Shown here: positions 6,473 through 8,700 of the stretch, one piece after another
How the letters are laid out: each line of letters opens with the position of its first letter
Numbering within the stretch: position 1 is the stretch's first letter
Assembly (NCBI RefSeq): GCF_000406145.1
Contig: NZ_CM001976.1
Span: 4,393,075 to 4,425,074, forward strand
DNA: 32,000 bases
Direction of reading: 5' to 3'
Origin: Dickeya dadantii NCPPB 898
GTDB lineage: Bacteria; Pseudomonadota; Gammaproteobacteria; Enterobacterales; Enterobacteriaceae
Program-made: the position numbers and the translations under genes
Notes under the pieces: generated by a model
Seen by the model: only the letters and a program-made list of their open reading frames with translations
Databases searched by the model: none
What the model was told of the DNA's origin: nothing

Positions 6473-6763
6473 CAGAACCTACGCTGCATTATCAGTAACC
6501 AACCTTAACGGTCAGCCCAGCCCATAAAAAGTCAAACTATTGATTTATAAATCAATAATGCGTTTTACTTCATCATCTCAACATTCCTCAGCATAAATAC
6601 TTTATTCACAGTATTACTTTTATCGATCGGTTTTAGGAAAATGATAGATTATATAAATTAAAATAGGGTTAATGATCGTTTTAAACGATTTTCATATTGG
6701 TTACATAAGCGCTAGATTAATTTGTAGAAAATAACAGCACTAATAGCGGTGATTATTTATGCA

Positions 6764-7465
6764 ATGAATGAACTATTCGTGATACGCCTGATTCCGGTAT
6801 TGACGAAAGAAAAAAGAATTTTTGCTTTCGAGCTCTTCCTAAACCAGAGAATATCCATCAATCCTACCAACAAGGGAAACACAGGTCATTCATCATGGAT
6901 AACGAATAAATTTCAGCTCTTTCTTATCAAATTAAACTATATCAGGGAGACATCCACACTTTCATCGTCCCCTTCCAGAAAAATAGTCATCGGGTTGGAT
7001 CGGGATCTTTTGGTTTTTATTCTAAATGATAAAAACATAAAGGAAGAGATCGCCTCTATAAAAGAGGTGAGGTTTATTATTGACGCCAGCATAGACATTA
7101 TCAACAACCGTAATGACTATCGACTAATAAAAGAATTATCTGCGATATCAAAAATATGGCTAAACGACTTCGGCACCGGTAACACCAGTGTCACTTCATT
7201 AAAAATGAGGACATTTGAGCATATTAAAATCAACAGAGATTTCATGTTGCGATACGGGAATATGAATTTCTTTCGTAAAATGCTAGACGATATCAATACA
7301 TGGAGCGACGGCGCAATATTGACCGGCATAGACAGTGACGAACTGCGTCGCCAATTCTCCGCCACGATGTTTTACGGCATGCAGGGAGAATTATGGAGCA
7401 CTATTATTCTGACTATAGGCGACCATGCGTTGCGCACCCCCTTGCCTGGTCTCATTCGACCATAA
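6764..7465 (+). CDS. degenerate (probably non-catalytic) EAL-like domain protein, YdiV/CdgR-like in size and architecture
   Basis: 233 aa from the ATG at 6764 (the ORF is open from a GTG at 6749). It aligns by eye to EAL landmarks, but most catalytic positions are changed. YQPI becomes LIPV and EALxR becomes FELFLNQ. ExxE becomes IIDAS and DDFGTG becomes NDFGTGN. KxD becomes KINRD and EGVE becomes LTGIDS; QG is retained (MQGELW). The gene is very AT-rich (35% GC by hand count at 7081-7140). Confidence 0.6.
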   Translation: MNELFVIRLIPVLTKEKRIFAFELFLNQRISINPTNKGNTGHSSWITNKFQLFLIKLNYIRETSTLSSSPSRKIVIGLDRDLLVFILNDKNIKEEIASIKEVRFIIDASIDIINNRNDYRLIKELSAISKIWLNDFGTGNTSVTSLKMRTFEHIKINRDFMLRYGNMNFFRKMLDDINTWSDGAILTGIDSDELRRQFSATMFYGMQGELWSTIILTIGDHALRTPLPGLIRP

Positions 7466-7496
7466 TCACACCATATTCAGGGAGCACGCGGGTTAC

Positions 7497-8255
7497 ATGA
7501 ATATCACCGCAGCCGAACTCGAAGCGGCTATCAGGGAAAATCGTGGGTTGGCGCTCAGCTACCAGCCTATTCTAAATGTTGGCACTCGACGAATCGACAG
7601 CGCTGAGGCGCTGCTGCGCTGGCGTCATCACGAGCAGGGGCTCGTCTCTCCGGTGCTGATCATTCCACTGGCCGAACAGGCCGGGCTGATGAACAAACTG
7701 GGAGACTGGGTACTCACCGAAGTCTGTCGACAGCACAGGGAAATCCCGAATTGCAGCCTTTCAATCAATGTTTCCCCTCAGCAGCTGGAGCAGGAAGGGT
7801 TTGCCGATAACATCGCCATGACGCTGGAGCACGCCCGTTGCAACGGTGGAAAAATTGAAATCGAAATCACCGAAAACCATCAACTGAATAATACCAACCA
7901 CGTCAGAAAGAATATTCGCCAATTACGCGATCTGGGTATTACCGTCGCTCTGGATGATTTTGGATCAGGCTACGCAGACATTCATTATCTTTACCAGTAT
8001 GAATTCGACAAGGTGAAAATGGATAGAAGCCTCATCGCCCAGCTCGGTAAAAACAAAAAGAACGATCTACTGGTTGAATCGTTAATCCGGGTTTTGCACA
8101 AGATGGATATTTCCGTTACGGCGGAAGGCGTGGAAAGCGAAGCGCAACTGCGCATGCTGGAAACATTGCAGTGCGATCGTATACAGGGCTTTATCATTTC
8201 CAACCCCATCGAGGCCAGTCGGTTGACAACATTTATACAGGCTTATCGCCGGTAA
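7497..8255 (+). CDS. stand-alone EAL-domain c-di-GMP phosphodiesterase (PdeH/YhjH-like architecture)
   Basis: 252 aa from the ATG at 7497 (the track ORF starts upstream at 7425, overlapping the previous gene). All canonical motifs are present: SYQPIL, AEALLRW, SINVS, EIEITE, LDDFGSGY, KMDRS, AEGVES and IQGF. Confidence 0.85.
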   Translation: MNITAAELEAAIRENRGLALSYQPILNVGTRRIDSAEALLRWRHHEQGLVSPVLIIPLAEQAGLMNKLGDWVLTEVCRQHREIPNCSLSINVSPQQLEQEGFADNIAMTLEHARCNGGKIEIEITENHQLNNTNHVRKNIRQLRDLGITVALDDFGSGYADIHYLYQYEFDKVKMDRSLIAQLGKNKKNDLLVESLIRVLHKMDISVTAEGVESEAQLRMLETLQCDRIQGFIISNPIEASRLTTFIQAYRR

Positions 8256-8356
8256 TATAACCGCGCCTAATAATTCCAGTTTCAGCGAAACGGCGACTGG
8301 AAATATGGCGGGAATAAAAGCGGAAACCACGCTCTGAAAATACCGCATGACTTTAA

Positions 8357-8382
8357 TTTTATCGCACCACTTTTATCGCACC
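8357..8382 (+). repeat. direct repeat TTTTATCGCACC x2 (14-bp period) abutting the SD of the small ORF
   Basis: Copies at 8357-8368 and 8371-8382 are identical. GGGGA and the ATG (8392) follow immediately. This is a possible regulator binding site. Confidence 0.5.
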
Positions 8383-8391
8383 GGGGAAAAT

Positions 8392-8700
8392 ATGTATATA
8401 CCAGCAGAGGCGACACTCAGAGACGTCATCGATTCATTGCTTAGCGAGTTGACTATCATCAACTATCTTTGTTTGGCCGCCAGCATGAACCAGTATGTGC
8501 GTAAGCAGAACATACGGACGCTAAACTCGCAGGAATTCCGTTTCCTGACCACCCGGCTGAAACGTATAAAAATCGACGTAAACCAACTGTCTGAGCTGAA
8601 TGATGACGACAAGGCGCATCTGCGCAAAGCATGTCATGACATTATCCAGTTCATCGAAGACCGCCAGCCAGAGCGTTCTTCCACCGCCGTTACCGGTTAA
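8392..8700 (+). CDS. hypothetical small protein (102 aa, predicted helical, no recognisable family)
   Basis: The ATG at 8392 is preceded by GGGGAAAAT (the track ORF starts at 8347). The sequence MYIPAEATLRDVIDSLLSELTIINYL...KAHLRKACHDIIQFIEDRQ has heptad-like hydrophobic spacing. Coding status is inferred only from ORF length, SD and position after the EAL gene. Confidence 0.45.
   Translation: MYIPAEATLRDVIDSLLSELTIINYLCLAASMNQYVRKQNIRTLNSQEFRFLTTRLKRIKIDVNQLSELNDDDKAHLRKACHDIIQFIEDRQPERSSTAVTG

Follow-up and report, generated by a model that had tools for sequence, protein, structure and literature searches.

What does an EAL protein that has lost most of its active-site residues contribute when it is encoded directly upstream of an EAL protein that appears to have kept them all? 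The question is raised by a 32,000-nucleotide stretch of the genome of Dickeya dadantii NCPPB 898 (assembly GCF_000406145.1, contig NZ_CM001976.1, positions 4,393,075 to 4,425,074), referred to below as the window and used for all coordinates. Between glpG and glpE of this D. dadantii-type genome, positions 6764-8700 hold three open reading frames (ORFs) on the same strand. ORF1 (6764-7465, + strand), the homologue of Dda3937_00339 of D. dadantii 3937, encodes a 233-residue degenerate stand-alone EAL-like protein of the PdeH/YdiV/STM1697 clade. ORF2 (7497-8255, + strand), the homologue of the gene encoding ADN00389, encodes a 252-residue stand-alone EAL domain with all catalytic motifs. ORF3 (8392-8700, + strand), the homologue of Dda3937_00337, encodes a Dickeya-restricted orphan of 102 residues with four predicted helices. 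An earlier note, written from the DNA alone, had placed three genes here and quoted motifs for both EAL genes; the genes and every one of the motifs were found as described. The genes are already annotated and their transcription unit is published. What the sequences add, on our reading, is that a YdiV-clade protein has degenerated independently and shares an operon with an apparently active EAL enzyme and an orphan, in a subclade of Dickeya only.

Fold and active site of ORF1

With the Pfam EAL model (PF00563), ORF1 scored 28.9 bits (E = 9e-7) over its C-terminal half only, below the gathering cut-off of 31.3 bits. A single-sequence search of the PDB returned YdiV (E = 1.7e-5) and STM1697 (3.5e-5) before the first canonical EAL domain (1.4e-3). 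An ORF1-family profile matched the same two proteins over their full length (STM1697, 5e-52; YdiV, 5e-49), and the next match was the canonical EAL protein YahA at 1e-15. An AlphaFold2 (AF2) model built on the family alignment had a predicted local distance difference test score (pLDDT) of 84.4 and a predicted template modelling (TM) score of 0.82, with the EAL barrel and groove confidently modelled. In Foldseek its closest matches were the YdiV-FlhD complex (4es4, E = 6e-15), the STM1697-FlhD complex (5hxg, 3e-14) and free YdiV (3tlq), with TM scores of 0.72-0.83 to the YdiV and STM1697 structures and canonical EAL domains beginning at E = 3e-10, although YdiV/STM1697-like sequences abound in the alignment from which the model was built and may bias this ranking. 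Of 99 PDB matches at E<=0.001, the 50 listed were without exception EAL or EAL-like domains. ORF1 is thus predicted, from sequence and model, to have an EAL/TIM-barrel fold nearest to YdiV and STM1697, its nearest solved relatives by sequence, profile and fold. Profile and structure searches, which the earlier note had named as one way to expose ORF1 as something other than an EAL protein, instead matched it to EAL proteins.

An exhaustive phmmer search of 1.84 billion representative sequences found one close relative of ORF1, the D. fangzhongdai orthologue, and 48 distant relatives with 18-34% identity, nearly all of 200-260 residues. The named ones belong to the Enterobacterales: Pantoea, Paramixta, Prodigiosinella/Brenneria, Gibbsiella, Sodalis, Klebsiella (the KPN_01159 family), Yokenella and Ewingella. 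In a neighbour-joining tree, the Dickeya ORF1 group formed an isolated long branch within a YdiV/STM1697/Pantoea-type assemblage and outside PdeH.

Short EAL genes of this general type also occur on mobile elements. YdiV-like examples were present on 362 plasmid records, with many plasmids of E. coli, Klebsiella and Enterobacter among the carriers, and in P1-like phages, such as Salmonella phage SJ1 (locus 2824-3513); one such phage annotates the gene as ydiV, and ORF1 itself matches phrog_32988 (E = 7.7e-12). Relatives of ORF1 are mobile, and phages or plasmids may employ proteins of this kind to adjust the motility of their hosts. Catalytically intact relatives lie directly downstream of a LuxR/GerE-type helix-turn-helix (HTH) gene in Prodigiosinella (5327-6696) and on plasmid pB61b of Ewingella americana (4196-5534), where they adjoin wza-wzb-wzc (capsule export) or a chaperone-usher fimbrial operon. 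These neighbourhoods suggest that many members of the ORF1 family regulate surface structures.

The consensus of the ORF1 family (ELLTR, NID, RLEIxE, WLDDFG, KIDK, EGVE and QG) looks catalytically competent because all of these motifs are kept. The corresponding stretches of ORF1 itself are FELF, RFIIDAS, WLNDFGTGN, KINRD, LTGIDS and MQG, and of about 10 positions involved in catalysis or ligand binding only 4 survive: E23 (the E of EAL), D135 (the second D of DD), K155 and Q207 (the Q of QG). Elsewhere ORF1 has I10 for the Q/E of (Q/E)PI, N27 for the substrate-contacting arginine of EALxR, G77 for N, I105 and A108 for the first and second E of ExxE, N134 for the first D of DD, N157 for the D of KxD, and T187 and D190 for the first and second E of EGVE. 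ORF1 therefore lacks the residue set of an active phosphodiesterase, and the replacement of its metal and catalytic positions, which had been read from the DNA, stands. The losses are not those of its characterised relatives. YdiV and STM1697 keep N and the second E of ExxE, with GN or GD for DD (GN in YdiV) and G for the first E of EGVE, and YdiV has M for K, whereas ORF1 keeps K and one D and loses N and both E of ExxE. Because the pattern of loss differs, the degeneration of ORF1 is independent of theirs.

A protein of this kind might still sense bis-(3′,5′)-cyclic dimeric GMP (c-di-GMP). ORF1 would then be a non-catalytic receptor like the EAL domains of LapD and FimX, relaying the state of the pool degraded by ORF2. 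Degenerate EAL domains can still bind c-di-GMP, LapD and FimX are among the fold matches, and ORF1 has the four kept residues and the confidently modelled barrel and groove. We nevertheless consider a receptor very unlikely. Asparagine stands at the EALxR arginine and isoleucine at the (Q/E)PI position, none of the N, ExxE, first D and EGVE positions keeps its canonical residue, and E23 is itself lost (to D) in the D. solani and D. fangzhongdai orthologues, as is D135 (to N) in that of D. fangzhongdai. Moreover, the nearest characterised relatives, the degenerate clade members YdiV and STM1697, bind FlhD but not c-di-GMP (PMC5622320, PMC3510510).

ORF2, ORF3 and the operon

ORF2 carries the motifs YQPI, EALLR, SINVS, EIEITE, LDDFGSGY, KMD, AEGVES and IQG, matches the Pfam EAL profile with 235.6 bits over positions 3-236 of 236, and is ~40% identical to active phosphodiesterases (the EAL domains of MorA, MucR and DosP). 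As the earlier note had stated, no EAL catalytic motif is missing, and we predict ORF2 to be an active c-di-GMP phosphodiesterase. The possibility that ORF1 is a recent duplicate of ORF2 was ruled out by an identity of 22% over ~100 residues and by their membership of different EAL clades. The product in strain 3937 is mis-named 'Sensory box/GGDEF family protein', and its locus tag, Dda3937_00338, was deduced from the gene order in the published transcription unit. Many GenBank entries start the gene at ATG 7425 (276 residues, with a 41-nt overlap with ORF1); the start used here, ATG 7497 with the stop at 8255, is that of the D. fangzhongdai annotation and of most RefSeq entries, and this shorter form of 252 residues still contains a complete EAL domain. 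With it, ORF1 and ORF2 are separated by 31 nt. For ORF1 (ATG 6764, stop 7465) the other possible start is GTG 6749, giving 238 residues, and for ORF3 (ATG 8392, stop 8700) it is ATG 8347, giving 117.

The AF2 model of ORF3 has four helices at low confidence (pLDDT 61.7), and its conserved core spans residues 22-91. Homologues were found only in Dickeya. Nothing significant was found in Pfam, NCBIfam, PHROGs, PADLOC, PDB sequences or plasmids, the AF2 model had no Foldseek match at E<=0.001, and matches to Aeromonas jumbo phages at E = 0.04 are not significant. A likeness of the locus to the BluF/BluR circuit that controls YcgZ, YmgA and AriR had been suggested; ORF3 showed no sequence or fold similarity to small regulators of this type in Pfam, NCBIfam, the PDB or Foldseek, and we found no support for the analogy. 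Upstream of the ORF3 ribosome-binding site is a tandem direct repeat (8357-8382, + strand, period 14), made up of two copies of the 12-nt sequence TTTTATCGCACC (8357-8368 and 8371-8382), the second of which stops 9 nt short of the ATG. The repeat, already seen in the earlier note, is present in the window and in strain 3937. The sequence is single-copy in D. fangzhongdai, so that the repeat is a 14-bp duplication confined to D. dadantii, not a conserved feature.

The transcription-unit map of D. dadantii 3937 (Forquet et al. 2022, PMC9239193, Table S1A) assigns Dda3937_00339-00338-00337 to a single unit, TU 1867, with one primary transcription start site (TSS) at 4483792 that is supported by RNA sequencing and by a predicted promoter; Nanopore reads validated both gene junctions (PMC9239193). 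The three genes are therefore shown to be one operon transcribed from one promoter. Coordinates of strain 3937 were transferred to the window through the 3937 locus, there being no insertions or deletions between the two in the TSS region, and place the TSS at 6724 (+ strand). Because this map makes ORF1 the first gene of a validated operon, the suggestion that ORF1 might be an untranscribed relic falls away.

The same map gives three 3′ ends for the unit on the + strand. The primary one lies at ~8745 (4485813 in 3937, PMC9239193) and abuts the stop codon of the convergent glpE gene. An internal end after ORF1 lies at ~7542 (4484610, PMC9239193), where we found no convincing hairpin (fold z 0.16). 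A second internal end at ~8321 (4485389, PMC9239193) follows a stable hairpin downstream of ORF2 (8261-8312, + strand, -25.8 kcal/mol, z -3.56), which is probably a partial terminator; the hairpin segment is absent in D. fangzhongdai.

The operon is preceded by an AT-rich regulatory region (6473-6763, + strand, 291 bp, 30.9% GC). Within the islet, conservation between D. dadantii and D. fangzhongdai is highest in the promoter-proximal ~130-170 bp of this region: nucleotide identity is 80-89% over 6600-6800, as against 66-78% over most of the coding sequence. A probable sigma-70 promoter, TTCATA-16 nt-TAGATT (6691-6718, + strand), was read from the sequence, with the TSS 6 nt after TAGATT. It falls below the 9/12 threshold of a consensus promoter and terminator scan, which returned no + strand site upstream of ORF1 and no more sites than shuffled sequences did. 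Centred ~42 nt upstream of the TSS is a perfect palindrome, ATCGTTTTAAACGAT (6675-6689, no strand assigned), which occurs once in the window where chance predicts 0 matches and is unchanged in D. fangzhongdai; we regard it as a candidate operator. The half-site AATGATCGTT (6671-6680), which overlaps this palindrome, resembles a half-site of the glpD promoter, a resemblance that is not statistically significant. An operator of the GlpR type was considered here and rejected, the pattern not being enriched and its AATG part not being conserved in D. fangzhongdai. Tandem GlpR-operator-like half-sites with 10-bp spacing (ATGTTTGTTT ... AAACGAACAT) are found in the glpD-glpE intergenic region (9300-9365). 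Farther back in the AT-rich region, ~170 nt before the TSS, is a perfect 20-bp palindrome, TATTGATTTATAAATCAATA (6538-6557), with one mismatch in strain 3937 and partial conservation in D. fangzhongdai. At the left edge of the islet, 9 nt after the stop codon of the gene for a major facilitator superfamily (MFS) transporter, a perfect 12-bp inverted repeat (6437-6472) folds into a 14-bp stem (-25.2 kcal/mol, z -4.6) with no U tract and is probably a transcript-end or repetitive extragenic palindromic (REP)-like element.

Marked AT-richness is confined to the promoter region and ORF1. ORF1 has 39.9% GC (36.9% in its 5′ half), whereas ORF2 (50.3%) and ORF3 (48.5%) lie only mildly below the genome value and the flanks have 56-58%. 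The GC content of 25-35% given in the earlier note therefore describes the upstream region and the start of ORF1, not the islet as a whole. The earlier note had also proposed that the islet is acquired DNA silenced by H-NS. Such silencing would accord with the low GC (31% in the promoter region, 40% in ORF1) and the restricted distribution; the operon is transcribed at a detectable level. Two further low-GC patches, 29501-30000 (37.8%) and 23001-23500 (43.6%), stand out in a window of ~58% GC and are possibly other acquired or regulatory regions.

Distribution, selection and origin

All three genes are confined to D. dadantii, D. solani, D. fangzhongdai and strains close to them, where they always occur together, and homology searches returned no close homologue of any of the three proteins outside Dickeya. 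The order between glpG and glpE is the same in D. dadantii 3937 and D. fangzhongdai, and cluster members place the genes also in D. solani and NCPPB 3274. Identity to strain 3937 reaches 96% for ORF1 (Dda3937_00339) and 100% for ORF3. For ORF2, identity drops from 71% in D. fangzhongdai to the ~40% of generic EAL domains. D. zeae EC1 is without the module, neither EAL gene having a counterpart in the catalogue of that strain. The recurrence of the three genes, together and intact, in several Dickeya species bears out the co-occurrence on which the earlier note had staked its proposal.

Is ORF1 nonetheless a decaying, functionless remnant of a once-active phosphodiesterase, carried along with ORF2? 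Its score below the Pfam gathering threshold, the loss of most catalytic residues, and its AT-richness with low GC at third codon positions would all fit. So would a frameshift that one D. dadantii lineage (GCA_013168455.1 and SRR11696187) carries near codon 147, at the equivalent of window position ~7200 in a run of A, with ORF2 and ORF3 intact. This frameshift could mark a real pseudogene or a homopolymer error common to assemblies of the same strain; given the frameshifted lineage, ORF1 can be lost. Selection argues the other way. Between the window and D. fangzhongdai the ratio of nonsynonymous to synonymous divergence (dN/dS) is 0.145 for ORF1, 0.167 for ORF2 and 0.19 for ORF3, at a dS of ~0.9-1.2, and relative to strain 3937 it is 0.11 for ORF1 and 0.14 for ORF2. 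All three genes are thus under purifying selection (dN/dS 0.11-0.19), ORF1 at 0.11-0.15 over a synonymous divergence of ~1.2. In addition, intact full-length copies of ORF1 are found in D. dadantii, D. solani and D. fangzhongdai, in Dickeya sp. NCPPB 3274 and in a few strains that bear the name D. zeae. The gene comes first in a mapped operon whose promoter region is conserved, the AF2 model of its product is confident, and the protein contains blocks with 87-93% invariant residues. A functionless remnant is highly improbable.

In E. coli, glpE, glpG and glpR are contiguous and glpE and glpG are 44 bp apart. In D. fangzhongdai the same gap holds only the three-gene islet, in the opposite orientation, and in D. 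dadantii it holds in addition a four-gene sugar cluster between glpG and the islet. The order in the window is glpR (330-1088), glpG (1246-2070), the sugar cluster (2244-6428), the islet (6473-8749) and glpE (8750-9070), so that the immediate neighbours of the three ORFs are the MFS transporter gene (5121-6428) and convergent glpE. The cluster encodes a fusion of a DeoR-type HTH domain with PfkB, a lyase resembling dihydrodipicolinate synthase (DHDPS), a YhcH/YiaL protein and the MFS transporter. The glpE-glpG gap is an insertion hot spot in Dickeya, and because it is filled the ancestral glpEGR operon is split, glpE and glpGR being separate transcription units in 3937. The islet is best explained as a lineage-restricted, horizontally acquired three-gene operon inserted into this gap in a subclade of Dickeya.

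The islet is also more diverged than its surroundings. Compared with the D. fangzhongdai locus (10001-11867), window positions 6764-8700 have a dS of ~1.0-1.2 as against 0.13-0.36 in the flanks, and nucleotide identity is 66-85% as against 91-98%. Allelic replacement, old polymorphism or fast evolution are possible causes of this excess.

The composition of the islet was compared with the surroundings (+/-4 kb) of the best 80 related loci in other genera, drawn with a 9-sequence subset alignment and a single pattern, PLWLDDFG, that also drew in PdeH orthologues. No second EAL gene was found near the relatives, all matches to ORF2 being the family gene itself, and no ORF3 homologue. With 0 of 80 related loci having either, the composition of the operon is specific to the Dickeya islet.

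Conserved surface of ORF1, its possible targets and known systems

The most conserved part of ORF1 is residues 151-185 (FEHIKINRDFMLRYGNMNFFRKMLDDINTWSDGAILTG), 87-93% invariant in six orthologues compared with 67% overall; nucleotide identity also peaks here. This segment aligns with alpha6-alpha8 of YdiV, the strongly conserved FlhD interface, and with the contact residues of STM1697. In the alignment, ORF1 F160 corresponds to F168 of YdiV and F160 of STM1697, F169/170 to YdiV F181, and a basic residue to YdiV R183, while M173 and W180 align with L173 and Y180 of STM1697.

From these similarities the following mechanism can be proposed. ORF2 would hydrolyse c-di-GMP and lower its concentration. 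ORF1 would be unable to hydrolyse c-di-GMP, would probably not bind it, and would act by protein-protein contact through its alpha6-alpha8 surface (residues ~147-185), its most likely target being the flagellar master regulator FlhD4C2. ORF3 would be an accessory partner. Expression of the operon would switch off the synthesis of new flagella while c-di-GMP falls, and this state would favour type III secretion and pectate lyase production in Dickeya. In D. dadantii a low c-di-GMP level stimulates both type III secretion and the expression of pectate lyases (PMC11960120, PMC9276944), so that such a combination of absent flagella and low c-di-GMP is physiologically plausible in planta, although this is speculation. 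We hold the central element, a YdiV/STM1697-like anti-FlhD4C2 role for ORF1 alongside ORF2, only tentatively, at somewhat less than an even chance, on the strength of sequence comparison and modelling.

A number of observations weigh against this role. The polar contacts of STM1697 are not retained: K175 and H176 are D175 and D176 in ORF1, with reversed charge, and K167 is M167. Two contact residues of YdiV are likewise not conserved, F155 being K147 and A184 being K or M, and K172 is a further contact position without conservation. Identity of ORF1 to YdiV and STM1697 is only ~19-25%, and it is sister to neither in the tree (bootstrap 19-32%). D. dadantii already has a separate ydiV-like gene elsewhere, Dda3937_03651, to which the 'EQL' protein W909_11910 of D. 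zeae EC1, described as ydiV-like, corresponds. The closest relatives of ORF1 are short EAL proteins of Pantoea and other Erwiniaceae with intact catalytic motifs, and some relatives lie beside LuxR-type regulators and fimbrial or capsule loci, not flagellar genes. The frameshifted D. dadantii lineage and the possible bias of the fold ranking count on the same side. Orthology of ORF1 with YdiV was ruled out by the low identity, the isolated branch, the different locus and the separate Dda3937_03651; the label YdiV-like given earlier holds for fold, family and stand-alone degenerate type but does not extend to orthology. With orthology lacking and the interface residues only partly conserved, membership of ORF1 in the anti-FlhD4C2 class cannot be claimed.

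The conserved helix fits a second partner as well as it fits FlhD, because it is also the dimerisation helix of canonical EAL proteins. ORF1 may therefore be a regulatory partner of ORF2, forming a heterodimer through this helix and switching the phosphodiesterase on or off; ORF3 might be a third component, and the module, not being connected directly to FlhD4C2, would serve as a c-di-GMP sink complete in itself. Dimers are the active form of EAL phosphodiesterases (PMC3510510), and the segment in question is the best conserved of ORF1. The strict co-inheritance and co-transcription of the three genes, the 31-nt gap between ORF1 and ORF2, the similar dN/dS and divergence of the three proteins (73, 71 and 68% amino-acid identity between species for ORF1, ORF2 and ORF3, respectively), and the restriction of the EAL pairing to the islet among the related loci are all consistent with a heterodimer. 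However, ORF1 and ORF2 belong to different EAL clades and share little identity, the equivalent helix of YdiV is so diverged that dimerisation is lost, and the predicted fold of ORF1 is nearer to YdiV than to dimeric EAL proteins. To our knowledge, no heteromeric pair of a dead and an active EAL protein from separate genes has been described, which also counts against a heterodimer. We judge it rather unlikely.

A broader version of the FlhD4C2 reading can be formulated, in which the islet is a self-contained acquired switch of three components, peculiar to the group of D. dadantii, D. solani and D. fangzhongdai: the YdiV-clade protein would antagonise FlhD4C2 or another master regulator, the phosphodiesterase would lower c-di-GMP, and ORF3 would tune or target one of the two. 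Flagellin is an immune elicitor in plants, and such a switch would uncouple flagellin synthesis from c-di-GMP-repressed virulence during infection. This full scheme is distinctly unlikely. The more general proposal that the module is a motility or virulence switch is plausible on the sequences.

The GGDEF and EAL genes of Dickeya have already been catalogued and deleted one by one, and c-di-GMP tightly controls type III secretion, pectate lyases, motility and biofilm formation in this genus. For the islet genes we found no functional study: the main texts searched mention none of Dda3937_00337, 00338, 00339, 00340 and 00341, and these tags were not among the entries of the Tn-seq supplements examined. 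Degenerate EAL proteins are common, so that the finding is a good experimental lead and not a surprise. It means that D. dadantii and its closest relatives have a second YdiV-clade dead EAL protein besides the genus-wide ydiV-like gene, hard-wired in an operon with a predicted active phosphodiesterase. If ORF1 controls ORF2, the islet would provide an example of a dead/active EAL pair from separate genes; if it targets FlhD4C2, flagellin could be suppressed in a simple way while c-di-GMP stays low. Either outcome would be a modest but concrete addition.

Among known systems, the BluF/BluR-YcgZ-YmgA-AriR circuit shares with the islet a degenerate EAL protein acting by contact and small helical proteins nearby, and the likeness is by analogy only. 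ORF1 has no BLUF sensor domain, the islet has no gene for a MerR-type repressor, and searches of Pfam, NCBIfam and the PDB detected nothing similar to ORF3. The short stand-alone EAL phosphodiesterases of Enterobacterales, among them PdeH (YhjH) and the KPN_01159 family, are closer: PRK11596 (PdeH) is the best NCBIfam match of ORF1 (46.8 bits), and the closest non-Dickeya relatives in the phmmer search are proteins of 220-250 residues from Pantoea, Paramixta, Prodigiosinella and Gibbsiella. However, the match falls well short of the 190 bits set as cut-off for PRK11596, PdeH branches as a clade of its own in the tree, and the relatives keep ELLTR, NID, LEIxE, LDDFG, KID, EGVE and QG where ORF1 does not.

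YdiV (RflP; STM1344 in Salmonella, YdiV in E. coli) resembles ORF1 more fully. It is a stand-alone protein of ~235 residues in an Enterobacterales-specific clade, with an EAL-like TIM barrel from which most catalytic residues are lost; it is the best sequence and fold match of ORF1 in the PDB, and its alpha6-alpha8 region, including F168, F181 and R183, has equivalents in the top-conserved segment. It differs in its chromosomal locus, in its set of kept residues and in that ORF1 shares an operon with a predicted active EAL enzyme and an orphan gene, an arrangement seen at none of the 80 sampled loci. STM1697 of Salmonella is a second EAL-like protein that binds FlhD and blocks recruitment of RNA polymerase. 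It is the best profile match of ORF1, with fold TM scores of 0.76-0.83 and matching hydrophobic contacts, and is set apart by its polar contacts, low identity, locus and operon context. STM1697 stands as a second, paralogous EAL-like regulator in a genome that also has YdiV, as ORF1 does beside Dda3937_03651, and if ORF1 does target FlhD4C2, D. dadantii would provide a plant-pathogen parallel to the YdiV/STM1697 pair of Salmonella.

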